Shown here piece by piece: positions 1 to 16,830 of a stretch of 64,000 nt of DNA. Every line of letters starts with the position of its first letter. Positions within the stretch are counted from its first letter, which is position 1. Location: assembly GCA_965217135.1 (NCBI GenBank), contig OZ244249.1, positions 3,496,167-3,560,166 on the forward strand. Reading direction: 5' to 3'. The position numbers and the translations under genes are program-made. This DNA comes from Paracoccaceae bacterium (lineage in GTDB: Bacteria; Pseudomonadota; Alphaproteobacteria; Rhodobacterales; Rhodobacteraceae). Below the pieces are notes generated by a model. The model was not told where the DNA came from. It saw only the letters and a list, made by a program, of their open reading frames with translations, and did not search any database.

Positions 1-737
1 TCAAACTTGTTGAGCTGGAAGACTTCAACAAGCGCAAACCACAGCAACTTTCTGGTGGGCAGCGTCAGCGGGTCGCTTTGGCCCGGGCGTTGGTTAAACG
101 TCCAAAACTGCTGCTCTTGGATGAACCTTTGGCCGCGCTCGACAAAAAGCTGCGAAAACAAACGCAGTTTGAGCTTGCCAACATTCAAGACAAGGTCGGT
201 GTGACGTTCATCGTCGTGACGCACGATCAGGAAGAGGCGATGACCTTGTCATCACGAATGGCCGTCATGGACGCCGGCCGCTTCCAGCAGATCGGCACGC
301 CAACCGAGATCTATGAATTCCCTGAATCTCGATTTGTTGCGGATTTCATCGGGACAGCAAACATCGTTGAGGGCCGGGTTACAGAAGATGGGGCAGACCA
401 CGTCCGAGTCGAAACTGCCTTCTGCGACGTTTTCATAGATCACGGTCATTCAGTTCAGGTAGGTAGCAAGATTTGGGTTGCACTGAGGCCCGAAAAAATT
501 CGTCTGGAAAAATCGGATGAGGCCGCAAACGGCGCCAACCAAAGCGCGGCTGTAATCGACGACGTCGGCTATCTGGGAGAGACGTCGATTTACAAAGTGA
601 AACTGCCCAATGGGGATATTTTCGACGTTACCCGACCCAACCAGTCGCGTCCGACGCACGCCGCTGAGCAGTTAACTTGGGACGATCGAGTGAACATCAG
701 CTGGGATCCTTCCAGCGCGATGTTGCTCCACTCATGA
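1..737 (+). CDS. ABC transporter ATP-binding protein, PotA (polyamine/opine) type; 5' end outside window
   Basis: Frame is open from nt 3. Translation reads ...KPQQLSGGQRQRVALARALVKRPKLLLLDEPLAALD...IVVTHDQEEA (ABC signature, Walker B, H-loop), followed by a TOBE-like C-terminal domain. Stop 735-737 overlaps the next ATG (ATGA). Confidence 0.9.
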   Translation, partial: KLVELEDFNKRKPQQLSGGQRQRVALARALVKRPKLLLLDEPLAALDKKLRKQTQFELANIQDKVGVTFIVVTHDQEEAMTLSSRMAVMDAGRFQQIGTPTEIYEFPESRFVADFIGTANIVEGRVTEDGADHVRVETAFCDVFIDHGHSVQVGSKIWVALRPEKIRLEKSDEAANGANQSAAVIDDVGYLGETSIYKVKLPNGDIFDVTRPNQSRPTHAAEQLTWDDRVNISWDPSSAMLLHS

Positions 738-1696
738 CGGGTTTCGCGAAAGATATGACTGAACGGACCCCGGGTGGACGCCCGCCTGTATTCCGCGATG
801 TTATGCGGCTGATACAAAATAGTTGGCGCCAAATCATAACCGTCATCCCTTTCGCGTGGCTGCTGGTTTTCTTTCTGGCCCCCTTTTTCATTGTTGCCAA
901 AATCAGCCTGGCCGAACTCGCGATTGCAAGCCCGCCGTTTACAAGTCTGATCGAGTGGACGGACAGCGGGATCATGACCATCCGTCTCGTATTCGATAAT
1001 TTTATCTACATTTGGGAAGATAATTTATACTTCAACACCTACGTAAACTCGCTGAAGATCTCTGTAACATCGACGGTCTTGTGCCTTCTGTTTGGGTATC
1101 CCATTGCCTATGCCATCGTGCGATCAGGTCCAGTCGCAAAACCATTGTTGTTGTTTGCAATCATCCTCCCCTTCTGGACGTCTTTCTTACTGCGGGTCTA
1201 TTCCTGGATGGGACTGCTCGCCGATCAGGGCACGATCAATAACATCTTGATCGCTATCGGTGTAATCGATGAGCCGATCCGCATGCTGTACACCGAATTC
1301 GCGGTCTATATCGGCATCGTTTATACCTATATGCCTTTCATGATCCTGCCGCTCTATGCGAATATGGAAAAGTTGGACACGAGCTTGAACGAAGCTGCTG
1401 CAGATCTTGGATCGCGTCCAACGAACACGTTCTTCAAAATCACTCTGCCTCTGACTATGCCCGGCATCGTTGCGGGCTCTCTTCTGGTCTTCATCCCGGC
1501 GACAGGCGAATACGTCATCCCCGACCTCTTGGGCGGAGGAAATGTGCAAATGATCGGACGCGTTCTGTACAACGAGTTTTCCAGAAACAGTGATTGGCCG
1601 GTAGCTGCGTCTGTGGCGATCGTACTGCTGATCATCCTCGTGCTGCCCATAATGGTTTTCCAGTACTACCAGGGCAAAGCATCGGAGGGACGATAA
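734..1696 (+). CDS. ABC transporter permease (PotB-like)
   Basis: Multi-TM protein with the EAA-type loop 'LNEAAADLGSRPTNTFFKITLPL'. I chose the ATG at 734 because it overlaps the upstream stop; the longer ORF from 677 would overlap the ATPase gene. Confidence 0.85.
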   Translation: MTGFAKDMTERTPGGRPPVFRDVMRLIQNSWRQIITVIPFAWLLVFFLAPFFIVAKISLAELAIASPPFTSLIEWTDSGIMTIRLVFDNFIYIWEDNLYFNTYVNSLKISVTSTVLCLLFGYPIAYAIVRSGPVAKPLLLFAIILPFWTSFLLRVYSWMGLLADQGTINNILIAIGVIDEPIRMLYTEFAVYIGIVYTYMPFMILPLYANMEKLDTSLNEAAADLGSRPTNTFFKITLPLTMPGIVAGSLLVFIPATGEYVIPDLLGGGNVQMIGRVLYNEFSRNSDWPVAASVAIVLLIILVLPIMVFQYYQGKASEGR

Positions 1697-2539
1697 ATGT
1701 ATAACAAACGCTCCCGCTTTTTGACGATCATGCTGACATTGGGCTTGGCATTCTTTTACATCCCAATGATTTTGCTGGTGATCTACTCTTTCAACTACTC
1801 CAAGCTCGTGCCCGTTTGGGGGGGATGGTCCTTGCGCTGGTACAAGGAGCTTTTCCAATCGGCAGAAGTTTGGAGCGCAGTATCGCTCAGTCTCCAGATC
1901 GCCGTCGTCAACGCAACATTTGCAACAGCGCTGGGTACTTTAGCGGGCCTTGCAATGGTGCGATTTGGTAGGTTTCGAGGGCGGACCCTGTTTGGCGGCA
2001 TGCTGGTCGCGCCCCTGGTGATGCCCGAGGTGATAACGGGCCTGTCTCTGCTGGTCTTCTTCATTTCCTTGAACCAGCTGATCGGATGGCCCGCAGAGCG
2101 CGGGTTCGCGACAATCACGATCGCACATATCACGTTCTCAATGGCCTATGTGGCAGTGACAATTCAGGCGCGATTGACTGGTGTTGGCCAAACGCTGGAG
2201 GAGGCAGCAGCGGATCTTGGTGCAAAGCCGTTCAAAGTTTTGACCGCCATCACCATCCCACAGCTGACACCGGCTTTGATTTCTGGCTGGTTGCTGGCCT
2301 TTACGTTGTCTCTTGATGATCTGGTCATCGCCAGTTTTGTAACGGGTCCCGGCGCGAATACCCTACCAATTTTGATCTTCTCGCGCATCAGGCTGGGCCT
2401 CCGACCCGATATCAATGCACTGGCGACCATTATGATCCTTGTGATCGCCGTCTGTGTCGCGATTGCTGCCATAGTCATGATCCGACAACAGCGTGCAGAT
2501 ATGCTGGACCGGCAAATGGCAGAAGAGGGGGAGAGCTGA
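1697..2539 (+). CDS. ABC transporter permease (PotC-like)
   Basis: 280-aa multi-TM protein with the EAA loop 'LEEAAADLGAKPFKVLTAITIPQ'. The ATG follows the upstream TAA directly. Confidence 0.85.
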   Translation: MYNKRSRFLTIMLTLGLAFFYIPMILLVIYSFNYSKLVPVWGGWSLRWYKELFQSAEVWSAVSLSLQIAVVNATFATALGTLAGLAMVRFGRFRGRTLFGGMLVAPLVMPEVITGLSLLVFFISLNQLIGWPAERGFATITIAHITFSMAYVAVTIQARLTGVGQTLEEAAADLGAKPFKVLTAITIPQLTPALISGWLLAFTLSLDDLVIASFVTGPGANTLPILIFSRIRLGLRPDINALATIMILVIAVCVAIAAIVMIRQQRADMLDRQMAEEGES

Positions 2540-2540
2540 A

Positions 2541-3173
2541 TTGCCAGCGAATGAACTGCAAAAGAAGCGGCGCAACGAACCATCCGCAGTTCGTCGTTTG
2601 CAGTTGATCATGGCGGCCTTGGACTCGATCTCGAAGCGTGGTTTCTCCGACACGACGTTGAAACATGTAACCGAAACAGCAAACCTATCGCACGGAGTGG
2701 TCAACTATCACTTCGACAGCAAAGAAGCGCTGTACGATGCGACCTTGGGGTTTCTCGCACGTGAGCACTACGAAAATTGGCTGCATTACTACGAGGCTGC
2801 AGAACCCACTGCAGCACATCGCCTTTCAGCTATAATCAGAGCAGACTTCGACAAAAGCATCTGCACCCATAAGCGTTTATCCGTCTGGTTCGCATTCTGG
2901 GGGCAAGCAAAGTATCGGCCGAATTATCTTAAAATTCACAATAAGTACGACAATGAAAGATATGATCGTATTCTTGAATTGTGCCGTGAGTTGATCACGG
3001 ATGGCGGCTACGACGATCTGGAGGTTGAACGCACAGCGCGGGCGATCGAGGCGATATCTGATGGCGCATGGCTCAGCCTCATACTGTACCCCAAAGATGC
3101 TGATCGGAGAGAGTTCAGAGACGTCTGCCTGCTGTCCCTGTCGCGTTTTTTTCCGAAACACTTCCCAATTTGA
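2541..3173 (+). CDS. TetR/AcrR family transcriptional regulator
   Basis: N-terminal HTH 'RRLQLIMAALDSISKRGFSDTTLKHVTETANLSHGVVNYHFDSKEALY'. The start is uncertain. TTG 2541 has a GGGGGAG RBS about 8 nt upstream. The ORF track begins at ATG 2493, inside the previous gene. Confidence 0.8.
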   Translation: MPANELQKKRRNEPSAVRRLQLIMAALDSISKRGFSDTTLKHVTETANLSHGVVNYHFDSKEALYDATLGFLAREHYENWLHYYEAAEPTAAHRLSAIIRADFDKSICTHKRLSVWFAFWGQAKYRPNYLKIHNKYDNERYDRILELCRELITDGGYDDLEVERTARAIEAISDGAWLSLILYPKDADRREFRDVCLLSLSRFFPKHFPI

Positions 3174-3454
3174 AACGCTTCTCGCGGCCAGGTCGGAAAA
3201 ATCTTGCCTGTTCACCGCAAGTGCTCTTCGCAGTTATGTCCGGCTAAAAAATTCGTGCTGTGGAGACCTGCAGGTTGAGTGTCCCGTGAACTCAACCCAA
3301 CGGCGTCTTGTTGTGTAGTTTGAGCGGCCACTGCCGTTGGCGTTCTCAAAAACGCAGTCCGTTGGAAGGCGAAAGAAGCAGTTCGGGGCTGATGAGTCAG
3401 AATGGGCAGTTTGCGCGCATGTCTTTTGAAACAAAGCCCAGCGTGGCCAGTACG

Positions 3455-4366
3455 CTACTTTTCGAATGGCTCACCCAGAGATGCTATTCCATTCAGTTTC
3501 AGCAGGCGTCGGTTCGACGAAATAATGCCCAAGACCACAATCGTCACGATGTAGGGCATGCTTGCCAAGAGCTGTGACGGAATTGCAAGGCCAACAGTTT
3601 GGGCGGCGATACCGCCGAGCGAAACTGCTCCAAACAGACAGGCCCCAAGAAAGACACGCCCCACCATCCACGTTCCAAAGACCACGAGCGCCACTGCAAT
3701 CCATCCGCGTCCTGCGATCATTCCATCGGCCCAAAGCGGTGTATAAATCGTCGAGGCATAGGCCCCAGCTATCCCGGCCATCAGGCCACCAAATGCCACC
3801 GCGCAAAGGCGGATCAGGATCACCGGGTATCCAACGGCGCTGGCCGCATGCGGGTTCTCACCAACGGCCCGCAGCAAAAGCCCCAGTCTTGTGTTTTTTA
3901 GAATGTACCAAAGTGTGGGCGTAAATATCAGCGACAGCCATACGACGATGTCCTGCCGGAACAAGCCACCAACCACTGGCAGATCGGTAAGTCCGGGTAT
4001 CGCGATTTTGCCAACCCCGGTGACGGTAAAGCTTTCAAATGGTTTGCCAAAATAAGCCGAGAGCCCAAGGCCCAGTATACCGATGGCCAGACCTGTGGCG
4101 ACCTGATTGGCTTGCAAGCCCAGCGCAACAAAGGCAAAGACGAGTGCCAGAGCAACACCGCTGAGCCCCCCGAACACAAAACCCGCCACGTGGCCGCCCC
4201 CCGAATAGACGGTGATAAACCCCACCGCAGCTCCCAGCGCCATCATGCCCTCGACGCCCAAGTTCAGTACACCCGAACGTTCGGCGACCAATTCCCCCAA
4301 AGCGGCGAGAAGGAACGGTGTCGCCGCGGCAAGCATCCCCGCTAAAATGAATTCGATAGCGGTCAT
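3455..4366 (-). CDS. ABC transporter permease (BMP/simple-sugar-nucleoside family, second permease)
   Basis: Highly hydrophobic multi-TM ORF. The ATG at 4366 forms an ATGA overlap with the upstream permease stop. Confidence 0.85.
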   Translation of the reverse strand: MTAIEFILAGMLAAATPFLLAALGELVAERSGVLNLGVEGMMALGAAVGFITVYSGGGHVAGFVFGGLSGVALALVFAFVALGLQANQVATGLAIGILGLGLSAYFGKPFESFTVTGVGKIAIPGLTDLPVVGGLFRQDIVVWLSLIFTPTLWYILKNTRLGLLLRAVGENPHAASAVGYPVILIRLCAVAFGGLMAGIAGAYASTIYTPLWADGMIAGRGWIAVALVVFGTWMVGRVFLGACLFGAVSLGGIAAQTVGLAIPSQLLASMPYIVTIVVLGIISSNRRLLKLNGIASLGEPFEK

Positions 4367-5436
4367 GCGCGCGCTCCTTGCGGCCAAACCAGTTTTCGCC
4401 GCACGAAGGTGGCCGCGATCAGATAGGCCAGTAGCAAGCTGCCTTGGAACACATTAACTGCAGCAATCGGAAGCTTAGCCGAAACCATTGCGTTGTCGCC
4501 GCCAATATAAAGAGCGGCCATCAAGAACGACGAAAAGAGGATACCGATGGGGTGTAAGCCGCCCAGATAAGCCACAATAATTGCTGCAAAGCCGTAACCT
4601 GTCGAGATCGAGCGTTGAAGTTGTCCGACAGGCCCCGCCACCTCCGCCGCGCCTGCAAGCCCGGCCGCAGCCCCGCCGATCAAAAGCGATAACCATATCG
4701 CACCGCTCTGTGAAAACCCTGCATAGCGCGCAGCATTGGGCGCAAGTCCACCGACTTCGAGCCGATAACCCGCAAAGCTCCGTTGTACGAAGAACCAGGC
4801 CGCAAGCGTCACCAGCAGCGCCAGGATCAGCGAAATGTTGACCCGCGTGCCTGGCAGCAGGATGGGTAACAGAGCGTCGTACTGGAACATAACGGATTGG
4901 GGGAAGTTAAATCCCATTGGGTCTTTCCAAGGCCCCAACAACAAGTAGTTCAGCAACTGAAGTGCCAAGAAGGACAGCATCAGCGAAACGAGGATTTCGT
5001 TGGCGTTAAGCCGCACACGCCAGAACGCAGTGATGGAGGCCCATGCCAATCCGCCGAGCATTCCAAACACCAGCATCGTTGGCCAAATCCAGGCACCGGT
5101 TGCTTGCGGCATATAAACCGGGATCGCAGAGGCGCAGATCGCACCCAAAACGAATTGCCCCTCCGCACCGATATTGAAGACCTTGGCACGGAAGCCGATC
5201 GCCAAGCCCTGTGCAATCAGCAAAAGAGGGCCCGCTTTCAGCAGGATTTCCGAGAAGGAAAAGTAGCTGGTAAACGGATCAATCAGCATCGCCTTGAACA
5301 CCGCCAAGGGATTAACGCCAATCGCTGCATAGAGGACCAGATTGCTGAGCGCCGCGATGGCCAAAGCCACGAACGGAGCCGCAATCATTACGGAAAGTGA
5401 GGCGCGTTCACGTCGAACAAGCTTTGGAAATGTCAC
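4363..5436 (-). CDS. ABC transporter permease (BMP/simple-sugar-nucleoside family, first permease)
   Basis: 357-aa multi-TM ORF. The GTG start overlaps the ATPase stop by 1 nt. Confidence 0.85.
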   Translation of the reverse strand: MTFPKLVRRERASLSVMIAAPFVALAIAALSNLVLYAAIGVNPLAVFKAMLIDPFTSYFSFSEILLKAGPLLLIAQGLAIGFRAKVFNIGAEGQFVLGAICASAIPVYMPQATGAWIWPTMLVFGMLGGLAWASITAFWRVRLNANEILVSLMLSFLALQLLNYLLLGPWKDPMGFNFPQSVMFQYDALLPILLPGTRVNISLILALLVTLAAWFFVQRSFAGYRLEVGGLAPNAARYAGFSQSGAIWLSLLIGGAAAGLAGAAEVAGPVGQLQRSISTGYGFAAIIVAYLGGLHPIGILFSSFLMAALYIGGDNAMVSAKLPIAAVNVFQGSLLLAYLIAATFVRRKLVWPQGARA

Positions 5437-6947
5437 TACGCTGCGCCCTCGCTCGCATCAATCATCGCGCGCCCAATGTCTTCAGGTGCTGTCTCACTGG
5501 TCTTGAAACGCGCGCTGAGACGGCCCTCGCTGAGCACCTGCATATAGTCGCTCAGCTCGAACAACTCTTCCAGCTCTTCAGAGATCACCAAGATGGCGCA
5601 GCCTGCACTACGCAACTCAATCAACCGCTTTCGGATTGCCGTCGCTGCACCAATGTCGACACCCCATGTCGGTTGGTTGAGGAACAGCAGCTTTGGTTCA
5701 AGCATTAGCTCCCGACCAATGATGAATTTCTGTAGATTTCCACCTGAGAGTGAGCCCGCCTCGGCCGTAGGCCCCGGCGTACGCACGTCGTTTTCGGCGA
5801 TGCAGTCTTCCGCGAATGTTTCTGCCCGGCCTCGCCGGATCATACCACTCTGCACCATCCCGCGGCGATGTGCGGTCAGGATTGAGTTCTTCACCAATGA
5901 CAGCTCCGGCACCGTCCCTTGGCCCAAACGGTCCTCCGGCACAAAGGCAAAGCCCAGTTCACGTCGCCTGGCAGGGTTCAGCGCGCCAGCCTTCTGCCCT
6001 AGCATGGAGATGCCATCGCGCATCGCCTTGGGTAAAGGCGTTTCGCCGGAAATGACGGCGGCGAGCTCTGTTTGACCATTTCCTGAGACACCGGCAATCC
6101 CAAGGATCTCGCCTTCCCGGACATGCAGCGAGATGTCCTTGAGCGACACGCCGAACGGGTCATCAGATGCAAGCGACAGCCCCAAGATTTCGAGTTGTTT
6201 CTCGCCGCGCTTAACCGGCTCAGCGGCCGAGAGATGCGGCATGTCCCGCCCAATCATCATCGTCGCCAGCGTATGCGCGTCGAAGTCTCGTGGAACCACA
6301 TTGCCTGTCACTTTACCTCCGCGCAGGATCGTCGCATGCGTACAGATCGAGCGGATCTCCTCCAGCTTATGAGAGATGAACAGGATGGAGACACCCCGCG
6401 CTGAAAGCCTGCGCAGCGTATCAAAAAGCAGGTCAACCGACTGCGGCGGCAATACCGATGTCGGTTCGTCCAAGATCAACAGCTTTGGGTCAACCATCAG
6501 GCAACGAATGATCTCGACCCGCTGCCGTTCTCCAACCGAAAGCGCGTGTACATGGGCCAGCGGGTCGACCTCCAGCCCGAACTCTTTACCAAGCTGCACG
6601 ATGCGTTCGGTCAGTTCTTTCTTTTTGCCCGGCACCAACAGCGAGACATTCTCGGCGACCGTCAAAGTCTCAAAAAGAGAAAAATGTTGGAACACCATAC
6701 CGATGCCCAGTCGCCGCGCAATTGCAGGGGAGCCGATCTGGGTCGGCTCTCCCCGCCACTCGATTGTGCCTTCGTCTGGCGTTTCGACCCCGTAGATCAG
6801 CTTCATCAGGGTCGACTTGCCTGCGCCGTTCTCTCCGAGAATCGCATGAATTGCGCCTGGCATTACGTCGAGGTCCACGCCAGAATTGGCGTGGACCGGA
6901 CCGTAGCGCTTGGTAACGCCACGCAAAGAGAGAAGCGGTTGAGCCAT
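5436..6947 (-). CDS. ABC transporter ATP-binding protein with duplicated cassettes
   Basis: Two ABC cassettes in 503 aa: Walker A 'GENGAGKST' with 'LSVGERQRVEI' and 'LLILDEPT', then a second cassette with 'GVSGNGQTE', 'LSGGNLQKF' and 'LLFLNQPT'. This layout is typical of sugar/nucleoside importers. Confidence 0.9.
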   Translation of the reverse strand: MAQPLLSLRGVTKRYGPVHANSGVDLDVMPGAIHAILGENGAGKSTLMKLIYGVETPDEGTIEWRGEPTQIGSPAIARRLGIGMVFQHFSLFETLTVAENVSLLVPGKKKELTERIVQLGKEFGLEVDPLAHVHALSVGERQRVEIIRCLMVDPKLLILDEPTSVLPPQSVDLLFDTLRRLSARGVSILFISHKLEEIRSICTHATILRGGKVTGNVVPRDFDAHTLATMMIGRDMPHLSAAEPVKRGEKQLEILGLSLASDDPFGVSLKDISLHVREGEILGIAGVSGNGQTELAAVISGETPLPKAMRDGISMLGQKAGALNPARRRELGFAFVPEDRLGQGTVPELSLVKNSILTAHRRGMVQSGMIRRGRAETFAEDCIAENDVRTPGPTAEAGSLSGGNLQKFIIGRELMLEPKLLFLNQPTWGVDIGAATAIRKRLIELRSAGCAILVISEELEELFELSDYMQVLSEGRLSARFKTSETAPEDIGRAMIDASEGAA

Positions 6948-6950
6948 AGA

Positions 6951-8054
6951 TCAGCCTGGCAGCGGTGTTGTCACGCCCTTGACGTGCCAGTCCATGCTGA
7001 TGACCTCTTCGTTGGTCATGGTCACACCCGCTGCAACGCCCTCAGACCCGTCAGCCTTCATGATCGGGCCTGTGAAGGGTGAGAAGGATCCATCTGCAAT
7101 CGCAGCCTCGACCTCTTTAATCTGCGCGACAACGTCCGCAGGGATATCCGGGCTCCAATCGACAACCTTTACCACATCGTCACCCACGCCAAGGAACGCA
7201 TTGGCACCCTTGAAGTTGCCTGCCAGATGCGCCTCGATCGAGGCCCGGAAAAAGGGCGACCAATCGGTCAGCACGCAGCCCAGATAAGTTTTGGGCGCAT
7301 ATGCTTTCATGGATGAGTTGAGGTTGAAGGAGTAGATGCCTATTTCTTCCGCTTTGGAGACCACGGACGGCGTGTCCTGTGCGTTCGAGAAGATAACATC
7401 GCAATCCTGCGCCGCCAGCGCCTCTGTCGACTCTTGCGCCTTTGCGGGGTCGAACCAAGAGTTCAGCCAAACAACCGAAAGCTCAATATCGGGATTGATC
7501 CGTTGAGCACCCAACACGAACGCGTTCAGCGAGGTGATTAGTTCCGGGATGGCAAATGCCGAAACCGAACCCAGTTTTCCAGTTTTTGACAATGCCGCGG
7601 CGGCCATACCCATCAGATATGTACCTTGGCTGTACTGGGCCGCGAAGGGCGAGAAGTTTGGCGCAACCATGAAACCGGAGGCGTGGAGAACCGTCACATC
7701 CGGGTTGCGGCGTGCGATCTGCATCGCACCGTTTTGATAGCCGAATGAGCCTGCAACAAGGAACTTCGTCCCCTCGGCGACGGCCTTGTTCATGATGCGG
7801 TCGGCGTCAGGGCCCTCGTAGATGTTTTCTACCACTGTGATCTGCATGGCTTCGCCATAGTCGGCCTTAACAGTTTCCAGCGCTTCAAACAGTGCATGGC
7901 CCCAACCCACATCGGCCACTGGCGACGGAATTACCAGCGTTACGAGCAGCGGGTCTTCTGGAGTTGCCGCCTGCGCCCGCGCACCAACTGCGGTGATCAG
8001 TGTTGCGAGCGAGGCGCCAGCAATAAAGTTTCTCCGGTTAAGAGTGTTTGTCAT
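6951..8054 (-). CDS. BMP-family (PnrA/Med-like) ABC substrate-binding protein
   Basis: Tat-like signal 'NRRNFIAGASLATLITAVGARAQA'. The 367-aa periplasmic protein has the BMP-family look and sits immediately upstream of the matching ATPase and permeases. Confidence 0.8.
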   Translation of the reverse strand: MTNTLNRRNFIAGASLATLITAVGARAQAATPEDPLLVTLVIPSPVADVGWGHALFEALETVKADYGEAMQITVVENIYEGPDADRIMNKAVAEGTKFLVAGSFGYQNGAMQIARRNPDVTVLHASGFMVAPNFSPFAAQYSQGTYLMGMAAAALSKTGKLGSVSAFAIPELITSLNAFVLGAQRINPDIELSVVWLNSWFDPAKAQESTEALAAQDCDVIFSNAQDTPSVVSKAEEIGIYSFNLNSSMKAYAPKTYLGCVLTDWSPFFRASIEAHLAGNFKGANAFLGVGDDVVKVVDWSPDIPADVVAQIKEVEAAIADGSFSPFTGPIMKADGSEGVAAGVTMTNEEVISMDWHVKGVTTPLPG

Positions 8055-8080
8055 GGTGTTTGTTTCCTTTCGTCCAAGTT

Positions 8081-9448
8081 TTAAGTTTCAAGTATTGAGA
8101 GGGCTTGTTCCGCGTCTCGGAACAGGGAGTCTTCGTCTACATTTGTGAATGCGCCGCTTTCCCACACGATTTGACCGTTGATCATCGTCATATCGGTTGG
8201 GCGTCCAATACCAACTTTAGGGATCAGGCTCAGCGGGTCGTGGCGCGTGCCCACATATTCCATCCGGCGGGTATCAATCGCGAACAAATCCGCTGCCATG
8301 CCGGGTGCCAGCCTGCCGATGTCGTCACGACCCAGAGCAGAGGCACCGCCCTTGGTGGCATAGTCGAGAAAGGTTGCGGGCGCAGGCACCGGGTCGTTGC
8401 GTTTGCTGGCTGCAAGGCATTGCAACATATAAGCAGAATGGATGCAGTGCATCAGGTTCGAATTGTCATTCGACGCCGCCCCATCCGCGCCCAGGCTGAC
8501 ACGAACACCCAGCGCGTCCATTGCGGGAATATCGGTGATCTCTGCACCCACGAGATAAACGGGTTCGGGGCAGTGGGATACGCCCGTGCCGCTGGCCGCA
8601 AGGCTGGTCAGTTCGTCTTGGGTAAGCTCCCAGCAATGGGCGTAGAACGTATCGTTGCCAGCAAAGTCCATGTTTTCGAGGTAAGCAACGGTGCGTTGGC
8701 CAGTCCGCGCCTCCATCACCAGGCTTTCGCCTTCACCGACATGGGTGTGAAGCACCACGCCCTTGTCACGGGCGAGTGCCACGGACTGAACCATCGTGTC
8801 CTTGTAGCAGTTCACAGGCTGGCATGGTGCGACCACGACTTGGCGCATACTGAAGCGACCAGGCTCGTGATAAGCGTCGATGATCCGTTCGCAATCGGCG
8901 ATGAATTCATCTGTTGTCTCAAGCATTTCATCCGGAATCGTGGATCCTTCGGACTTCGGCAAGGTGTTCCCGCCCCGACCGGCGTGGAACCGGAGACCCA
9001 GCCGCTCTGCTGCCTCAAACTGCCGATCGATCAATCGTTTTCCAGCATGACGGGGAAAGCAATACTGATGATCCATCGCAGTTGTGCAGCCATGTTTGAT
9101 CAGCTCAGACATGGCGGTAAGCGATGAGTGATAGAAGCAGTCCTCTGTCAGGCGCGAGAAGATTGGGTAAATTAGATCAAGCCATTCGATCAGCGACAGT
9201 TTCGTCCAGTCCAAGTCCGCACGGTTGCGCACGAAGGTCTGAAAGAAATGGTGATGGGTATTCACAAGGCCCGGGTAAATGAACCAGCCGGAAGCGTCTT
9301 TTGCCGTGGCACCCGGTGCGCTTAGGTTGGAGCCAATGGCTTGGATGGCGGGGCCTTCTGTCAGTAAGTCAACATCGCGCAGAACCTCAGCCCCATTGCC
9401 ATGATCCACAATCACTGCAGCGCAATTTTTCAGCAGCACCCCCGTCAT
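8081..9448 (-). CDS. Amidohydrolase, guanine-deaminase superfamily (8-oxoguanine deaminase / AtzB-like, cog0402)
   Basis: Metal-ligand HxH motif 'LVNTHHHFFQTF', then 'VLHTHVGE', 'VSHCPE' and 'SLGADGAASND', as in cog0402 deaminases. The start overlaps the GST stop by 4 nt. Confidence 0.8.
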   Translation of the reverse strand: MTGVLLKNCAAVIVDHGNGAEVLRDVDLLTEGPAIQAIGSNLSAPGATAKDASGWFIYPGLVNTHHHFFQTFVRNRADLDWTKLSLIEWLDLIYPIFSRLTEDCFYHSSLTAMSELIKHGCTTAMDHQYCFPRHAGKRLIDRQFEAAERLGLRFHAGRGGNTLPKSEGSTIPDEMLETTDEFIADCERIIDAYHEPGRFSMRQVVVAPCQPVNCYKDTMVQSVALARDKGVVLHTHVGEGESLVMEARTGQRTVAYLENMDFAGNDTFYAHCWELTQDELTSLAASGTGVSHCPEPVYLVGAEITDIPAMDALGVRVSLGADGAASNDNSNLMHCIHSAYMLQCLAASKRNDPVPAPATFLDYATKGGASALGRDDIGRLAPGMAADLFAIDTRRMEYVGTRHDPLSLIPKVGIGRPTDMTMINGQIVWESGAFTNVDEDSLFRDAEQALSILET

Positions 9449-10101
9449 GAATCAGGCTCCGCCAAAGGATCCTGTGCAAGCTCATGCAAACGGTGAATAC
9501 CCGGCATTTCAATGAAGCCGGGCAAAGCCCGCAAGGCCCGCATCCAGAGCCGGATTGAAGGATACGGGTCGAGCGAAACGCTACCATCGGGGGCCAGTGC
9601 AACGTAAGGAAAGCACGCGATGTCTGCGATGGAGGGTGCGTCGCCGACAAGGAAAGTCCCGCCCGAGACCCGGCGCGCAAACAAGGCCGCTTCCAACTCC
9701 CGCAGAGCGACAACGCCGCTGGACTGGAGCGCTTCCAGATCACCTTCGAAATTCAGCATCTCAACCAATCTGGCACCGCCCAATGTGGCTGTCAGCCGGT
9801 TTGAAAACGCAAGCCATTGGTGTTGGAGTGCGATGGCTTGCGGATCGCCGTCGGCTGCCCAGTCGGGGCCATATTTACTTGCCAGATAAGCAAGCATCGC
9901 CGCACTTTCCGTTAGCACGAAATCATCGTCCACAAGGATCGGGATGCTGCCAGCTGGGTTGAGGTTCAAAAGGTCGTCGGCTTTATGCTCACGCCCCGGA
10001 TGGAAATCGACTGCACGCAGTTCAAGCTGAACACCCAACAAAGACGCCAAAAGCCGTACTTTGTAGCAACTGGGGGAAAGGATGTAATCGTAGAGGATCA
10101 T
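9445..10101 (-). CDS. Glutathione S-transferase family protein
   Basis: Thioredoxin-like N-domain 'MILYDYILSPSCYKVRLLASLLGV...GSIPILVDDDFVLTESAAMLAYLASKYG' plus a helical C-domain. Both ends have 4-nt overlaps with neighbours. Confidence 0.85.
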   Translation of the reverse strand: MILYDYILSPSCYKVRLLASLLGVQLELRAVDFHPGREHKADDLLNLNPAGSIPILVDDDFVLTESAAMLAYLASKYGPDWAADGDPQAIALQHQWLAFSNRLTATLGGARLVEMLNFEGDLEALQSSGVVALRELEAALFARRVSGGTFLVGDAPSIADIACFPYVALAPDGSVSLDPYPSIRLWMRALRALPGFIEMPGIHRLHELAQDPLAEPDS

Positions 10102-10940
10102 TCAGCCACCAATTGCGCGCCGTAGGTATAGCTGTGCCGCTTCAACCATCGACGGTAGGCGACCGATGTGAGGTCGGCGCGCGTTGGGGTTTCCATCGCT
10201 GGATCCAAAGGGAGTTTTTTCGGGATTTGATTTTCCAAAATGGACCGATCCTGCAGAAAGATCAGCTGCTGGAAGTGGATCAGGTCGGTCATTGAGCTTT
10301 CATCATCAAACAGCGCCATCCATGGCCAAACATCGCACAGGTCTTCGGCGAGGGGCTGCACGAAAAGCGCAATGACGTCCCATTCACCCGGACGCGGGGG
10401 GCAGGTTTTATAGAGGACAGAGCATGTGGGCGCGGGAACGCGGTACATGTATTCCGTGGTGATCCCACCGCCCGCCGATTTAGCGGCTTGGGGCTGAAAG
10501 AACTCAACCTTGGTGGCCCAGACTTCATCAACCTCATCGCGGATCTCAACCTTGTAGTCGCGAACCTCTGGATGGGTTTCAGCACCCAAAATGTCCGTAT
10601 GCACAAAAGGAAAATGGGCGACATCGAGGAAGTTCTCGACCGCGCGCAGGGGGGAACATTTGACCCGGACGACACCGACATCGACCAAGGTCCTGTCCGG
10701 ATGATCGGCTTCGGGGATTGTGAAAAGGTCTTTGTCGGGCGCGCCCAGGCTGGTCCAAAGGTGACCAAACCGCTGCACTACGGGCAGAATGTGCCCACAG
10801 CTTTCGACCCTTGGTGTGCCATCATCTGATCCGAAGACTGTGATCTTTTCACCCAGCAGCAGGCTGTCCTCTCCATCGACGCTAAGGCCGGACAGAAGTC
10901 CGACAGGGTACCATGCGTTGCGCACTGCATCTGTTGTCAT
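10098..10940 (-). CDS. Rieske-type oxygenase catalytic (alpha) subunit with a degenerate Rieske domain
   Basis: Intact mononuclear-iron motif E-x3-D-x2-H-x4-H ('ENFLDVAHFPFVH'). The N-terminal about 100 aa keeps only 'CGH'. The second C-x-x-H is replaced by 'QRFGHLW', so a full set of 2Fe-2S ligands is absent. Confidence 0.75.
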   Translation of the reverse strand: MTTDAVRNAWYPVGLLSGLSVDGEDSLLLGEKITVFGSDDGTPRVESCGHILPVVQRFGHLWTSLGAPDKDLFTIPEADHPDRTLVDVGVVRVKCSPLRAVENFLDVAHFPFVHTDILGAETHPEVRDYKVEIRDEVDEVWATKVEFFQPQAAKSAGGGITTEYMYRVPAPTCSVLYKTCPPRPGEWDVIALFVQPLAEDLCDVWPWMALFDDESSMTDLIHFQQLIFLQDRSILENQIPKKLPLDPAMETPTRADLTSVAYRRWLKRHSYTYGAQLVAE

Positions 10941-11635
10941 GCGGCGTCCCCAATTCCCTCAGCGGTGCGGCGCAAAGCTTCTAGAGCGGTGGAGACTTTC
11001 ACCCGATCCTGCGCACTGGTCGCGGTTGGCAGCAAAGCAATTACAAGCGCTTCATCCGGCCCATGAACATTCGTGAGCAAAATGGTACCCTGACCGCCAA
11101 GCTGTGCTGTGATCACGCCCTCAACTGTCTCGCTCTGACAGGCGGATGAAATCGCTTCGACGGATGCGCCAATCAAAAGGCTACGCAAAGCGTTGTATCC
11201 TGCGAACTGGACGGGCGGATCAACCGGTGACGCCGCAGCACCCCAGACAACACCATTTACTTCTGTCACTGACACTGGGCCGCAATTGATGGTTTTGGGT
11301 GGCTCGACTGCCGGGTGAGCAGGGATCTTTTGGCAGACACCATCGGTTCCGAAACGCCAGCCATGATAGATACAAGATAGCGTCTCACCGCGCACAAATC
11401 CATGCGACAGGCGCATTCCGCGATGCGGGCAGCGATCCCCGTTCGCGTAAAGATGACCTGAAGCGGCCCGCCAAACAGCGATCGGGCCTTTTGGCAGCTG
11501 CGATGGCACGACGGTCCCGTTTAAAATGTCGGCTGACACAGCGATTGGTACCCATCGCGCATCGGTATCGGCAGCCATAACCTTGTATTTCCCATCCCCT
11601 GCCAGATTGCCCGGCGTCGCGTACGGACTATGCAC
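10937..11635 (-). CDS. Stand-alone Rieske [2Fe-2S] domain protein with a C-terminal extension of unknown function
   Basis: Canonical ligands 'CPHRGMRLSHGFVRGETLSCIYHGWRF'. The roughly 110-aa C-terminal part has no motif I recognise. The start is GTG 11635 or ATG 11578. The stop overlaps the oxygenase start. Confidence 0.75.
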   Translation of the reverse strand: MHSPYATPGNLAGDGKYKVMAADTDARWVPIAVSADILNGTVVPSQLPKGPIAVWRAASGHLYANGDRCPHRGMRLSHGFVRGETLSCIYHGWRFGTDGVCQKIPAHPAVEPPKTINCGPVSVTEVNGVVWGAAASPVDPPVQFAGYNALRSLLIGASVEAISSACQSETVEGVITAQLGGQGTILLTNVHGPDEALVIALLPTATSAQDRVKVSTALEALRRTAEGIGDAA

Positions 11636-11794
11636 GCCTTCGTCTTACGTCTTAGGTTCGAGCCCGAGCAAAGCAGACCCGCCTATATTTTGGCTGTACA
11701 GTCCTGCAGGGCCTGAACGGCCCATTTCCCCCACGGATTCGCAAAACCAAGGCCAAGCTATGCTGAGCTTTTCATCATCGCGCCAAAAAAACAA

Positions 11795-12022
11795 TCAGTC
11801 ATCAGATGTGGCAGGCCCGCGGGTGATCGATTCAACCCATACATCGTACGGCCCAAGGAGGCAGCCAACCTCAAACGCGTCGATCAGATCGGCTTGTCCA
11901 TCAACCTTGAAAACAGCCTTGCTTGCGTCTGCGTGAAGTGTTTCGCATCTCAGTCCAAGCTTGCGACTATGGCGTTCAACCCAGGGCAGGAAGTTCGGGC
12001 TTTGCAACTCTCCTCGGAGCAT
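11795..12022 (-). CDS. Hypothetical small protein, possibly acylphosphatase-like fold
   Basis: Only the distal 76 codons of the 164-aa ORF look protein-like: 'MLRGELQSPNFLPWVERHSRKLGLRCETLHADASKAVFKVDGQADLIDAFEVGCLLGPYDVWVESI'. It lies in a lower-GC, gene-poor gap. Confidence 0.3.
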   Translation of the reverse strand: MLRGELQSPNFLPWVERHSRKLGLRCETLHADASKAVFKVDGQADLIDAFEVGCLLGPYDVWVESITRGPATSDD

Positions 12023-12539
12023 GAACTTTTGCGGCTGGTTTGAAGAGGGGATGTTGGACACGAGATCACTTTGCGGCCGAATTGCTACCGGAAACAGTAA
12101 AAGCATTGCGCGCGAATGAAAGATGAAAACCGCCCTCTGGTCCGACCGTAAAGCGCGAAAAGTAAACTCTAGGCGCATAGTCTGGACGGCGGGTTTGTAC
12201 GCATACCTTCTGGTTTGTTTTGGACTGTTCAGCAAGTTACACGAATAGCCGGTCCGGTAAATTGATGCCCAAATGAGAATGCTGATCACAAAGTTTCTTT
12301 AACCCGGCAACCCGGCCGCGGTCAGCCACGAATGTATCGTCCAATCCATGCCCATATATGAGACGCGAACGGCTTGGGCGGGATATGGAGCACCACCATT
12401 GCGGCCGTTGCCAGGGCGACCACTGAACCAATCTTCCTGAAACCCTTGATCAGCCTTACCTTAGTGGTCCAGTTTGAATGTTAGTGCGTGATCAGCCTAG
12501 GGTCTTTCTGAACGCTGGTTTCCGGCGCCGGTGGGCGGT

Positions 12540-12720
12540 GCGCTCCGCCTCGGGCTCAAACCAATGGCGCTGCTATGTCAGGATCCTCCAGCGTTAAAAT
12601 GTCTGCTTGGTCGAACCAATCTGCCGGATGGCATCCATGCGTGGCATAGCTGGCCCCGCTAGAATATAAGCCTGTCGCGCAAGCACATCATCTTTGCTCG
12701 TCTGAAATGGTACGAGGCAT
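12540..12720 (-). pseudogene. Possible relic of an HTH (IS630/Tc1-like transposase N-terminus) gene
   Basis: Minus-strand translation gives 'MPRTISDEQR*'. One frame over it gives 'DDVLARQAYILAGPAMPRMDAIRQIGSTKQTF*RWRIL'. This is an HTH-like pattern broken by a frameshift and stops, and no intact ORF remains. Confidence 0.2.
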
Positions 12721-12725
12721 CGCTC

Positions 12726-13415
12726 TCAGCTTGGGAACACGTCGTGCAGAGACGTCGGAGCCGTAGGACGGTCGGACAGGTCCAGTTGCGTCAGCAGGTC
12801 CAGCAAATGATCTTTCATCAGGTCCTCCGCTCGGTCGGCATCCTGCGCTCGCAGCGCCTCGATCAGTTCGTGATGCGCGTTGCTTTCACACAGTGCGGTG
12901 CGACGACGCCAATAAAGTGCGATTACCAGCGATGAACGGGAAATCAGCTGGTGCAGGAAATCTTCAATGATCTTCTGATCGGCGATGCGGGCGATTTCCA
13001 AGTGGAATTCCCCAGACAGCTTCAAAGCAAGCCCCGCCTCGCCCCGGTCCAGTGCTTCGTGTTCCAGCGCAATGTGCCGTTCCAGCACCTTCATGTCTCG
13101 CGCCGTTGCCGCTTCGGCCGCCGCGCGTGCTGTTTGCGGTTCCAGCAGTACCCGGGTCTGAAACACCTCGCGAGCTTCGCGTAGCGTGGGCCGCGCCACA
13201 AAAGCTCCACGGTTGCGTTCGATTGTAACCAATCCGTCATGCGCCATGCTGCGCAACGCCTGCCGGACAAGCGTCCGGCTAACACCAAAGATGTCGCCGA
13301 CCTCATCTTCGCGCAGCCGCGTTCCAGGCTGGATACGGTGTTCGTGGACCGCTTCGGTCAACTGGTTAACAATATCTTCAACAGTATTTACGGGCGTGGA
13401 CACAATATTTGGCAT
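12726..13415 (-). CDS. GntR family transcriptional regulator (FadR/FCD subfamily)
   Basis: wHTH 'RLREDEVGDIFGVSRTLVRQALRSMAHDGLVTIERNRGAFV' plus an FCD-type helical C-domain. ATG 13415 is preceded by AGGAG at good spacing. The longer ORF to 13592 is not supported. Confidence 0.85.
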   Translation of the reverse strand: MPNIVSTPVNTVEDIVNQLTEAVHEHRIQPGTRLREDEVGDIFGVSRTLVRQALRSMAHDGLVTIERNRGAFVARPTLREAREVFQTRVLLEPQTARAAAEAATARDMKVLERHIALEHEALDRGEAGLALKLSGEFHLEIARIADQKIIEDFLHQLISRSSLVIALYWRRRTALCESNAHHELIEALRAQDADRAEDLMKDHLLDLLTQLDLSDRPTAPTSLHDVFPS

Positions 13416-13498: not shown

Positions 13499-13634
13499 AT
13501 TTGCTTATTTTTCGAACAAAATTTGCTAACATTGCATATTTTTCACGCCCCAACCCCTTGACGCAGAGCAATGATGCGAAAAATCTTGGCACATGATCCC
13601 GTCTGTCTCAGGCTGGTGTCGCCGGAGAAAAGAC

Positions 13635-14618
13635 ATGAAAAATAAGCTAGACCTCGAACTCGTCAGCCTGACAAAACGCTATGGCCAGACCTTGGCCGTA
13701 GACGAAATCAGTTATCATTTTGGCGTGGGAACCTATGCCTGCCTACTCGGGCCGTCGGGCTGCGGCAAGTCTTCCACCCTGCGGATGATCGCAGGGCACG
13801 AATCGGTGTCGTCTGGCGCGGTCACACTGGGCGGGCGAGACATCTCCAACCTACCCCCGGCCAAACGCGGCACAGCCATGATGTTCCAGAACTACGCGCT
13901 GTTCCCACACCTGACCGTGATCGACAATGTCGCCTTCAGCCTGAAGATGCGCGGCGTCGCGGCCGAGGAACGGCGCAAGCGTGCCATGTCGATGCTGGAC
14001 CTGGTTGATATGGCTGCTTTGTCCGACCGCCTGCCAGCGCAATTGTCCGGCGGCCAGCAACAGCGCGCTGCGCTGGCGCGCGCCCTGATCACCGAACCGG
14101 ATGTCCTTTTGCTGGACGAACCACTGTCGGCATTGGACCCGTTCCTGCGCATCCGCATGAGGGCGGAATTGAAAAAGCTGCAACGCGAACTGGGCATCAC
14201 GTTCATACACGTCACCCATGGGCAGGAAGAAGCGCTGGCACTTGCAGACGAAATCGTGGTCATGAACAACGCAATCATCGAACAGGCCGGGCGCACACGT
14301 GACGTGTTCGAAGCCCCCAAGACCGCCTTTGTGGCGCTCTTTCTGGGCTCGCACAATGTGGTGTCGATGCCCGAAGGCAAAGTCGCGATTCGGACCGATG
14401 CCATCCGACTGACAAAACCAGAGGCGGCCAAGCTGCCTGGAACGATCACCAATATCGAATACCAGGGCACACATGTGGCGTTGACGGCTGCGATCCCGGG
14501 AAACCAGGACGTGACCGCGCTGCTGCCCGACAAGGATTTCTTCGGGAACCCGAAGGATGTGGGAGAGGCTATCGGCCTCGACTGGAAAGCCGAGGCGGCC
14601 CACGCCCTGGCAAGCTAA
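13635..14618 (+). CDS. ABC transporter ATP-binding protein (PotA/FbpC type)
   Basis: Walker A 'GPSGCGKSS', 'LSGGQQQRAALARAL', 'LLLDEPLSALD' and 'VTHGQEEA', plus a TOBE-like tail. ATG 13635 is preceded by GGAGAAAAG. Confidence 0.9.
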   Translation: MKNKLDLELVSLTKRYGQTLAVDEISYHFGVGTYACLLGPSGCGKSSTLRMIAGHESVSSGAVTLGGRDISNLPPAKRGTAMMFQNYALFPHLTVIDNVAFSLKMRGVAAEERRKRAMSMLDLVDMAALSDRLPAQLSGGQQQRAALARALITEPDVLLLDEPLSALDPFLRIRMRAELKKLQRELGITFIHVTHGQEEALALADEIVVMNNAIIEQAGRTRDVFEAPKTAFVALFLGSHNVVSMPEGKVAIRTDAIRLTKPEAAKLPGTITNIEYQGTHVALTAAIPGNQDVTALLPDKDFFGNPKDVGEAIGLDWKAEAAHALAS

Positions 14619-14644
14619 GAAAAGTTCAAAACGAGGAAACTGCC

Positions 14645-15919: not shown

Positions 15920-15978
15920 TCACAAACGGTCCGGGGGGCATCGCCCCCCGGATCCCCGATTGAATAAAAGGACCCGCC

Positions 15979-16830
15979 GTGCGCAAGACGTCGATCACCG
16001 GCTGGCTGCTGGCCTCACCGCTGTCTCTTATCCTGTTGGTGTTTTTGGCCGCCCCGATCGCGATGATCGTGGTGGTCAGTTTCTGGGGCGCGACCGAATG
16101 GGCGATCTACCCGGCGTTCGAGTTCGAAAATTACGAATTCCTTCTGACCTCGTCCGTCACATACCGGGTCTTTCTAAACACGTTCAAATATGCCGCGATC
16201 ACCTGGGCCTGTACCCTCGTAATCGGTTTTACTGTGGCCTATTACCTGGCCTTCCATATCCGGACGCTGACCTGGCAGATTGTCCTGTTCCTTCTGTGCA
16301 CTATCCCGTTCCTGACCTCCAACATCATTCGCATGATTTCCTGGATCCCGTTCCTGGGCCGCAATGGGCTGGCCAATTCCGCCCTGATCTCCTGGGGCGT
16401 CATCGATGAACCTGTGGAGTGGCTGTTATTCAGCGATTTCAGCGTAATCCTTGCCTTTGTCCACCTCTACACGCTGTTCATGGTCGTCCCGATCTTCAAC
16501 ACGATGATGCGAATCGACAAATCCCTGATCGAAGCCGCCGCTGATGCCGGGGCCTCGGGCTGGCAGACCCTGTGGCAGGTGATCGTGCCGCTGACGAAAC
16601 CCGGCATTATGATCGGCACGATCTTTGTGCTGGCGCTGGTGATGGGCGATTTCATCACCGTGCGGTTCATGTCAGGCAGTCAGTCGGCCAATGTTGGCCG
16701 GATGATCCAGAACGACATCGCGCTGCTGCAATACCCCTCGGCTTCGGCCACGGCGGTGATCCTGCTGGTCACCGTGCTTTTGCTGATCGGAACCCTGCTG
16801 CGGTTCGTCGACATCCGGAAGGAGTTGTGA
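15979..16830 (+). CDS. ABC transporter permease
   Basis: Multi-TM protein with EAA loop 'LIEAAADAGASGWQTLWQVIVPL'. Confidence 0.85.
   Translation: MRKTSITGWLLASPLSLILLVFLAAPIAMIVVVSFWGATEWAIYPAFEFENYEFLLTSSVTYRVFLNTFKYAAITWACTLVIGFTVAYYLAFHIRTLTWQIVLFLLCTIPFLTSNIIRMISWIPFLGRNGLANSALISWGVIDEPVEWLLFSDFSVILAFVHLYTLFMVVPIFNTMMRIDKSLIEAAADAGASGWQTLWQVIVPLTKPGIMIGTIFVLALVMGDFITVRFMSGSQSANVGRMIQNDIALLQYPSASATAVILLVTVLLLIGTLLRFVDIRKEL

Follow-up and report, generated by a model that had tools for sequence, protein, structure and literature searches.

Gene content and organization of the cluster

We analyzed a gene cluster that encodes a split Rieske-type oxygenase, an amidohydrolase, and an ATP-binding cassette (ABC) importer in a Paracoccaceae bacterium (contig OZ244249.1, positions 3,496,167 to 3,560,166). 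This 64-kb stretch of DNA is called the window below, and coordinates are positions within it. An earlier description made from the letters of the window, here called the sequence-only reading, had reported eight minus-strand genes, and the open reading frame (ORF) listing of the window indeed contains eight co-directional minus-strand ORFs at 3455-11635. Domain assignment with Pfam and NCBIfam bore out the reported order, which is Rieske protein, oxygenase, glutathione S-transferase (GST), amidohydrolase, BMP-family protein, double-cassette ATPase, permease 1, and permease 2. The free-standing Rieske [2Fe-2S] subunit, of 213 amino acids (aa) and encoded at 10937..11578 (longest ORF to 11635), matched the Pfam Rieske domain (E 4.6e-21), and the catalytic subunit of an NdmC-like nonheme-iron oxygenase (280 aa; 10098..10940) matched VanA_C (E 1.6e-18). 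They are followed by an NdmE-like GST-fold protein (218 aa; 9445..10101; GST_N and GST_C) and an amidohydrolase-superfamily protein orthologous to NdmH (455 aa; 8081..9448; Amidohydro_1, E 1.8e-52). The importer comprises a periplasmic BMP-family binding protein with a twin-arginine signal (367 aa; 6951..8054; Bmp, E 2.7e-38), an ATPase with two fused cassettes (503 aa; 5436..6947; two ABC_tran stretches), and two permeases with BPD_transp_2 domains (permease 1, 357 aa, 4363..5436; permease 2, 303 aa, 3455..4366).

The genes are as tightly packed as the sequence-only reading had stated (overlaps of 1 to 4 nucleotides [nt], gaps of at most 26 nt), given that permease 2 starts at ATG 4366. There is a 4-nt overlap at each of the Rieske/oxygenase, oxygenase/GST, and GST/amidohydrolase junctions. 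The amidohydrolase and BMP genes are separated by 26 nt and the BMP and ATPase genes by 3 nt, the ATPase and permease 1 genes overlap by 1 nt, and the two permease genes overlap by 4 nt (ATGA). The longest ORF of permease 2 runs from 4387, and six public assemblies call the protein as 303 aa from ATG 4366. For the Rieske gene, the most likely start, judged from alignment, is ATG 11578 (213 aa) rather than GTG 11635, because its homologues are 213 to 217 aa long and align from that Met. A ninth gene, small (~75 aa) and also on the minus strand (11795..12022), precedes the Rieske gene at a distance of 216 bp, and the intergenic region between the two (11579..11794, minus strand), as read from the sequence, is the likely promoter/operator of the main operon. 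Proteins of the cluster were found identical on many marine metagenome contigs and in a metagenome-assembled genome named Marinibacterium sp.

Conservation of the nine genes as a unit

The 280-aa oxygenase has thousands of relatives, and a scan of these with one genome per species gave at least 583 genomic loci. Conservation counts below refer to the best 80 of these loci, taken from species representatives, and counts for the reductase and the small gene refer to ~84 orthologous loci. The best 80 were all alphaproteobacterial, belonging to Rhizobiaceae, Mesorhizobium, Martelella, Pleomorphomonas, and many Rhodobacterales. All nine genes were colinear in 66 of the 80, or 66 of the 74 uncut loci, the other 6 ending at a contig edge. 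The eight variant loci comprised one without a detectable small ORF, two with the four oxygenase genes alone, and five without the hydrolase, which retained the oxygenase and the transporter. This colinear nine-gene arrangement is far beyond chance, and conservation as a unit, which the sequence-only reading had left to be checked, was found across Rhizobiales and Rhodobacterales. Median identities to the window proteins were 77% for the hydrolase, 75% for the oxygenase, 74% for permease 1, 69% for the ATPase, 46% for the small protein, and 43% for the Rieske protein.

The flanks of the cluster are unrelated between genera. When ~3200 flanking ORFs were clustered, no further family besides the nine genes recurred across genera, which ruled out recurrent neighbor genes such as a regulator, a reductase, or enzymes for formaldehyde or dimethylamine. 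Two loci without hydrolase and transporter (L050 and L064) were inspected for a clue to the substrate and gave none, their neighbors being unrelated genes for inositol catabolism, response regulators, and an amidase. The hosts of the cluster are associated with plants and algae, the cluster is kept in soil, freshwater, and marine Alphaproteobacteria, and it is common on Rhizobium plasmids. In the window, the G+C content of the cluster (3001-11500) is 0.56 to 0.58, compared with 0.51 to 0.54 in 1-3000. The higher G+C content, the variable flanks, and the location on Rhizobium plasmids are compatible with horizontal spread of the module.

The catalytic subunit resembles NdmC and the GST resembles NdmE

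We compared the oxygenase with characterized Rieske-type enzymes. It was 45% identical to NdmC of Pseudomonas putida CBB5 (UniProt M1EY73) over its full length (281 columns, E 1e-80) and 47% identical to the Klebsiella ndmC homologue. Identity to NdmA/NdmB-type proteins was ~22 to 23%, and identity to HpxD was 28 to 31% over residues 52 to 272, which form the catalytic part (~78% of the protein). The residues of the 2-His-1-carboxylate iron site, H109, H114, and D231, are invariant in homologues of the oxygenase, and the homologue alignment has no conserved Cys or His in residues 1 to 95; the Rieske ligands have been lost. The nearest solved structures by sequence were SxtT and GxtA (E 2e-21), followed by NdmA. 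With the AlphaFold2 model (predicted local distance difference test score [pLDDT] 87.5), Foldseek matched the whole GxtA/SxtT alpha subunit (query TM-score [TMq] 0.86, root mean square deviation ~3 Å). The model spans the whole alpha subunit, with the N-terminal Rieske fold trimmed and the cluster ligands gone.

The GST was 45% identical to the Klebsiella NdmE-like GST and 42% identical to NdmE of Paraburkholderia caffeinilytica. It carries the signature LYDYxLSxxCxKxRL common to NdmE-type GSTs; this signature and the cis-proline P54 are invariant, and the glutathione-site residues S9, C12, P54, and E65-S66 are present. NdmCDE is reported to demethylate 7-methylxanthine (PMC4408171). The GST-like NdmE is reported to be needed for the solubility and activity of NdmCDE; a structural role has been postulated, and the protein is considered noncatalytic (2015 review PMC4408171; 2026 micropublication). 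The structure of the NdmCDE complex is still unsolved (2026 micropublication). By analogy with NdmE, the GST of the window is probably a structural partner of the oxygenase.

The Rieske subunit is free-standing and no reductase is linked

Across 70 homologues of the 213-aa protein, the Rieske ligands (C50-P-H52 and C69-x-x-H72) do not vary. In hhalign, its residues 1 to 210 aligned with residues 1 to 241 of NdmD (probability 100%, E 3.2e-41). Since the alignment is solely with this part of NdmD, the protein corresponds to an NdmD N-terminal module that lacks both the flavin/NAD part and the plant-type ferredoxin part. Its AlphaFold2 model (pLDDT 94) also matched the whole GxtA/SxtT alpha subunit in Foldseek, including both domains (TMq 0.77), which suggests that the C-terminal part, where there is no conserved His, is a reduced remnant of a catalytic domain. 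From the two models we infer that the NdmC-like and Rieske proteins are paralogues of one alpha subunit that have degenerated in complementary ways. In loci L003 and L005, an apparent disruption of the Rieske gene (83-aa public calls, 9753-10004) proved to be a gene-caller artifact, the 213-aa frame being intact.

We also searched with a hidden Markov model (HMM) of the NdmD reductase part. As a control, the model recovered all five fused NdmDs with E values below 1e-170. It found no NdmD-type reductase in the 64-kb window or within 10 kb on either side of the ~84 orthologous loci. The likeness to NdmCDE drawn in the sequence-only reading thus withstood comparison in each of its parts. The oxygenase groups with NdmC (45 to 47% identity, against 22 to 23% for NdmA/NdmB and ~30% for HpxD) and not with a non-purine oxygenase, the GST is 42 to 45% identical to NdmE-type GSTs, and the separate polypeptide that carries the Rieske cluster is homologous to the NdmD Rieske module by hhalign. 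The absence of a reductase gene, noted for the operon, extends to the window and to the orthologous loci.

A small protein of acylphosphatase-like fold is encoded upstream

The ~75-aa protein encoded upstream of the Rieske gene is 41 to 48% identical to small ORFs in the same position in Agrobacterium, Tabrizicola, and Aureimonas, and such a gene was found to accompany the cluster in 82 of 84 orthologous loci. It is absent from clusters with a fused NdmD. In a paralogous cluster of Rhizobium sp. (L096), the small ORF overlaps the Rieske start by 4 nt. The profile of the family matched acylphosphatase 1v3z (E 1.8e-6), and 47 of 60 members matched PF00708. The column of the acylphosphatase catalytic Arg is occupied by Leu in this family, however, and that of the catalytic Asn varies, with His30 in the window protein. 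On this profile evidence, the small protein is a divergent acylphosphatase-like protein whose kinship lies at the level of the fold only.

The family comprises 98 clusters at 50% identity among 1.84 billion representatives. Its members are nearly all stand-alone proteins of 60 to 170 aa, and no informative fusions emerged. The small protein may be a fourth subunit of the oxygenase or an accessory factor for it. The idea that it is a detached piece of NdmD was rejected, since a pairwise E value of 0.058 was accompanied by an hhalign probability of only 1.5%. An 84-aa ORF between ndmA and ndmB of P. caffeinilytica, considered as a possible homologue, was unrelated. A 164-aa ORF at 11795-12289 in the window extends the small gene upstream, but this longer form has no support.

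The amidohydrolase is an NdmH orthologue

The sequence-only reading had assigned the amidohydrolase to cog0402 as an enzyme of the guanine-deaminase type. The family stood, and the type was refined. With comparison sequences taken from the supplement of PMC13054789, the protein was 77% identical to both poNdmH and rbNdmH (78% between these two), 55% identical to AtzB, 54% to hsNdmH, and 35% to the 8-oxoguanine deaminase of Pseudomonas aeruginosa. All 13 residues named for NdmH are kept (Q70, W81, W89, Y94, Y129, N161, C209, Q210, N213, E239, H271, P296, and D322); these correspond to the catalytic Gln, Glu, His, and Asp, the substrate-flanking Trp, Trp, Tyr, Tyr, and Pro, and the CQNN residues (PMC13054789). 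The NCBIfam 8-oxoguanine deaminase model gave 376 bits, which is under its cutoff of 532, and the nearest solved relatives were AtzB/8-oxoguanine-deaminase-type entries (7ww2 and 3hpa). On the strength of these identities and residues, the amidohydrolase is an NdmH orthologue and not a generic guanine deaminase.

This assignment brings an experimentally demonstrated reaction to the cluster type. The AtzB homologues of Pleomorphomonas oryzae, a Rhodobacteraceae bacterium, and Haliea convert N2,N2-dimethylguanine to xanthine and dimethylamine (Drexler et al., ACS Catal 2026, PMC13054789). With N2,N2-dimethylguanine, they reach kcat/KM values from 1.7e5 to 9.4e5 per M per s, those of poNdmH and rbNdmH being 5.4e5 to 9.4e5; they prefer this substrate over guanine 150- to 3600-fold, and their turnover of hydroxyatrazine is ~1e4-fold lower (PMC13054789). 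Enzymes of the NdmH cluster are also promiscuous, with a mean of six tested substrates converted per enzyme, and the genomic context of NdmH was left as a planned follow-up (PMC13054789). The hydrolase of a Pleomorphomonas cluster (L072) shares 91% identity with poNdmH, and the hydrolases of L061 and L063 share 92% with rbNdmH, which indicates that these two characterized NdmHs come from the nine-gene cluster type described here. We found no paper joining dimethylguanine with a Rieske enzyme or NdmH with this oxygenase, and none combining 7-methylguanine, Rieske, and demethylase.

The binding protein probably belongs with purine-base binders

The sequence-only reading had proposed an importer of the nucleoside/purine type, on the background that BMP/PnrA proteins import purine nucleosides. 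The purine assignment was retained, but nucleoside binding became less likely, since the subgroup of AtzT and 3s99, which bind purine bases, fitted best. The nearest solved relatives of the binding protein were guanine-bound AtzT (6pi5, E 1.4e-71) and an adenine-bound Brucella protein (3s99, E 8e-70), and the match to the nucleoside binder TmpC/PnrA was far weaker (E 3.8e-5). Five of the seven AtzT ligand residues are identical (S97, F98, E165, W194, and N218). Of the other two, Y45 is conservatively replaced by W51, and N220 corresponds to D227 with a one-residue insertion, at an overall identity of 34%. The N220 loop of AtzT is known to touch the alkylamino groups of hydroxyatrazine. The window protein resembles AtzT and 3s99 in fold class, in the aromatic sandwich of the guanine site, and in most of the hydrogen-bonding residues. 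Its N terminus carries a twin-arginine motif, NRRNFIA. Judged from the ligand residues, a free base is more likely than a nucleoside to be bound.

Comparison with NdmCDE and with sister clusters

The cluster of the window shares with NdmCDE a catalytic subunit without a Rieske cluster, a Rieske domain on another polypeptide, and an adjacent NdmE-type GST. It differs in that its Rieske subunit is a free 213-aa protein, whereas NdmD is a Rieske-reductase fusion of 585 to 588 aa, and in having a small protein of acylphosphatase fold and no linked reductase. The surroundings differ as well. NdmCDE is encoded beside NdmA, NdmB, and formaldehyde-detoxification genes, whereas the window oxygenase is encoded beside an ABC importer and an NdmH whose catalytic, substrate-flanking, and CQNN residues are all identical to those of the characterized enzymes. 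HpxDE of Klebsiella, a molybdenum-independent xanthine hydroxylase, offers a further parallel in that a Rieske-type oxygenase (~30% identity) acts on a purine base. HpxD keeps its own Rieske domain, whereas the window oxygenase is without Rieske ligands, and no GST partner was seen for HpxD.

True ndmCDE clusters were recovered from Sinorhizobium meliloti, P. caffeinilytica, and Klebsiella and P. fulva plasmids, the plasmid clusters being of the kind that has been reported for Klebsiella pneumoniae WGLW2 and Pseudomonas sp. TJI-51 (PMC4408171). The S. meliloti megaplasmid cluster of ndmCDE homologues, whose function is noted as unknown in Summers et al. 2013 as relayed by PMC4408171, resembles the window in that NdmC-like proteins (43 to 45% identical) are encoded next to a GST, a BMP-type ABC importer, and a GntR regulator. 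Unlike the window, it has a fused NdmD-type Rieske-reductase and a divergent transporter, and it has neither NdmH nor the small protein. In the two S. meliloti loci (L013 and L014), one or two tandem NdmC-like genes, the fused NdmD, and the GST are divergent from the GntR gene and the importer. Xanthine-dehydrogenase-family genes lie a few kilobases off in L013.

A paralogous cluster type was found in Rhizobium sp. (L096, 2283-11385) and Prosthecomicrobium (L097, 1-11657), with NdmC-like proteins 54 to 56% identical to the window oxygenase. Here the small ORF, the free Rieske gene, and the GST gene are on one strand, and the BMP importer, the NdmC-like gene, and a cog0402 hydrolase gene are divergent from them. 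The hydrolase is not NdmH; that of L097 comes closest to the P. aeruginosa 8-oxoguanine deaminase (46% identity). Since the two cluster types share the oxygenase and the importer and differ in the hydrolase, the constant core consists of a four-protein oxygenase and a purine-type importer. This constancy beside a variable hydrolase speaks for the small protein being part of the oxygenase and for a different modified purine as the target of each type. In L097, an adenine-deaminase-type gene adjoins the GST gene.

Proposed pathway and alternatives

Taken together, these data lead us to favor, as probable though well short of certain, a self-contained module for the uptake and catabolism of methylated guanine bases that gives xanthine. 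The proposal of the sequence-only reading, a module for a modified (for example, N-methylated) purine, is upheld by the homology to NdmC, NdmE, and NdmD, by the NdmH orthology, and by the conservation of the unit. In the pathway that we envisage, the BMP-type protein, exported by the twin-arginine translocation (Tat) system, would capture the free base in the periplasm, and the double-cassette ATPase and the permeases would import it. NdmH would then cut the C2-N bond, as orthologues from the same cluster type do in vitro, releasing dimethylamine and leaving the xanthine ring. By homology to NdmC, NdmD, and NdmE, a multisubunit Rieske monooxygenase would hydroxylate a ring N-methyl group, for which N7 is the most likely position by analogy with NdmC acting on 7-methylxanthine. 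The methyl group would leave as formaldehyde, and xanthine would enter ordinary purine catabolism.

The monooxygenase would consist of the NdmC-like subunit with its predicted His109-His114-Asp231 iron, the free 213-aa subunit with the [2Fe-2S] cluster, the GST as a scaffold, and the small acylphosphatase-fold protein as a probable fourth component. One paralogue has lost the cluster and the other the catalytic site, so that together they would rebuild the usual path from cluster to iron. On this model, the Rieske His and the His at the catalytic iron are predicted to lie ~12 Å apart, with D106 as the bridge between them at the interface of the two subunits. Electrons would come from a reductase encoded elsewhere. 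Both enzymes would be needed for N2,N2,7-trimethylguanine, which is the base found in trimethylguanosine caps; or else the module may handle a mixture, such as m2,2G and m7G (N2,N2-dimethylguanine and 7-methylguanine). Both suggestions are speculative.

Several points weigh against a module for methylated guanines. NdmH alone makes xanthine from N2,N2-dimethylguanine, so that this substrate requires no oxygenase. The terms 7-methylguanine and methylguanine are absent from PMC13054789, in which action of NdmH on N7-methylated guanines is unreported. At 45% identity to NdmC, the regiospecificity and even the type of reaction may differ. The enzymes are separable, as the five loci without NdmH and the two with the oxygenase genes alone indicate. 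The binding pocket departs from AtzT at two positions, with an overall identity of 34%, and none of the examined orthologous loci has a linked NdmD-type reductase. The fuller claim, that a previously undescribed four-protein, unfused form of NdmCDE together with NdmH and a base importer mineralizes methylated guanines of eukaryotic RNA, and that sister clusters with a swapped hydrolase serve other purines, is tentative, and we think it rather unlikely to hold in its entirety.

The demonstrated NdmH product, xanthine, could also be the substrate of the oxygenase, which would then be a ring hydroxylase like HpxDE that converts xanthine (or hypoxanthine) to urate at C8. HpxD is a detectable relative (~28 to 31% over ~78% of the oxygenase), and SxtT and GxtA, the closest solved structures, are hydroxylases. 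We nevertheless consider this reading improbable, because the oxygenase is far closer to NdmC (45 to 47% over the full length), because the split architecture and the NdmE-like GST are common to NdmCDE while matches to HpxD cover residues 52 to 272 only, and because the window already encodes a xanthine-dehydrogenase-family molybdenum hydroxylase at 60341-62638. Similarly doubtful is an oxygenase that acts on the exocyclic methyl groups of N2,N2-dimethylguanine or N2-methylguanine, or on released dimethylamine, with the GST trapping formaldehyde with glutathione. NdmH does release dimethylamine, the GST retains the usual glutathione-site residues, and Rieske N-demethylases of small amines are known. 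Against it, NdmH takes off the dimethylamino group as a whole (1e5 to 1e6 per M per s), so that oxidative removal would be redundant. The nearest characterized relative, NdmC, acts on a purine ring N-methyl group, NdmE is considered noncatalytic, and the oxygenase is also encoded beside hydrolases of other subfamilies and in loci that lack NdmH.

The true target could also be another purine-like compound, such as a plant or algal methylxanthine, a marine purine alkaloid, or an s-triazine, for which N2,N2-dimethylguanine is a mere proxy. The promiscuity of NdmH-cluster enzymes, the action of AtzB and AtzT, the closest solved relatives, on hydroxyatrazine, and the plant- and alga-associated hosts would fit such a target. 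We give it only a slight chance, since NdmH turnover of hydroxyatrazine is ~1e4-fold lower, methylxanthines need no C2 hydrolase, and the strong conservation in Alphaproteobacteria from soil, freshwater, and the sea points to a substrate that is ubiquitous. That the genes are mere neighbors, a transporter operon next to an unrelated oxygenase with no shared pathway, is very hard to credit. A few loci do carry the four oxygenase genes alone; however, stop and start codons overlap, the order is kept in 66 of the 74 uncut loci with unrelated flanks, and the same set of components recurs in a rearranged paralogous cluster and in S. meliloti.

The components of the proposed methylated-guanine module are of known kinds, namely relatives of NdmC, NdmD, and NdmE, an NdmH, and a purine-type BMP importer. 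What appears to be undescribed is their combination, together with the free state of the Rieske subunit, the additional small subunit, and the lack of a reductase throughout. NdmH, characterized in 2026 as an isolated enzyme, thereby gains a genomic context and predicted pathway partners, and one clade of rhizobial ndmCDE homologues becomes linked to methylated guanine rather than caffeine. The free Rieske subunit indicates that the NdmD fusion is only one solution, and the apparently complementary half-alpha subunits offer a tractable system for the unsolved NdmCDE complex. If the proposal is true, the module would recycle nitrogen-rich modified nucleobases in soil, the rhizosphere, and the sea, in at least 66 sampled alphaproteobacterial species. 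We regard the interest as moderate to high because two orphan observations become one directly testable pathway.

Upstream regions and neighboring genes

We further examined the regions upstream of the Rieske gene. In at least 23 rhizobial clusters, the motif TTGCCA(A/T)TGC(G/A)(A/G)A-N5-7-T(T/A)TGCAA lies at -109 to -113 from the Rieske ATG (for example, in L019, L020, L026, L030, L032, L035, L038, L039, L041, L053, L054, and L093). Pleomorphomonas-type clusters (L071 and L072) instead have the palindrome ATGCA-N9-TGCAT. Both are candidate operator or promoter elements. The intergenic region of the window (11579-11794) contains neither the rhizobial motif nor the palindrome. An upstream riboswitch or other RNA element was ruled out in Rfam searches, which gave no match for the window at gathering thresholds or for 11400-12900 at E values up to 1. 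A consensus scan placed a terminator-like hairpin with a T-rich tail at 3429..3457 (minus strand), right after the last stop codon. Promoter and terminator site counts in the window were at chance level, and the hairpin is therefore suggestive by position only.

A GntR/FCD-family regulator (Pfam GntR and FCD) is encoded at 12726..13415 on the minus strand. It shares 37% identity with the GntR that adjoins the ndmC-like cluster of S. meliloti, and ndmC of P. caffeinilytica likewise has a GntR beside it. However, GntR is absent beside most orthologous clusters, and in the window it is divergent from another ABC operon (13593 onward). It may regulate the nine-gene cluster, which is uncertain, or it may instead regulate this other importer. 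This operon (13593-18319, plus strand) encodes a TOBE_2 ATPase, an SBP_bac_8 binding protein that bears a Tat signal, two BPD_transp_1 permeases, and a protein of the Asp/Glu-racemase family. Between the small ORF and the GntR gene, ~700 bp (12023-12725) are free of conserved ORFs and of Rfam matches.

Farther away, the window encodes a pyrimidine-nucleoside phosphorylase followed by a phosphopentomutase-like metalloenzyme (49891-52397, plus strand) and a molybdopterin subunit of the xanthine-dehydrogenase/aldehyde-oxidase family (60341-62638, plus strand). The molybdopterin subunit and phosphorylase genes serve purine/nucleoside catabolism but have no link to the cluster, from which they are 40 to 50 kb away. 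A plus-strand ORF (62616-63689) that overlaps the molybdenum-enzyme gene at its end encodes the catalytic domain of a Tle1-like phospholipase effector of the type VI secretion system (E 1.7e-58).

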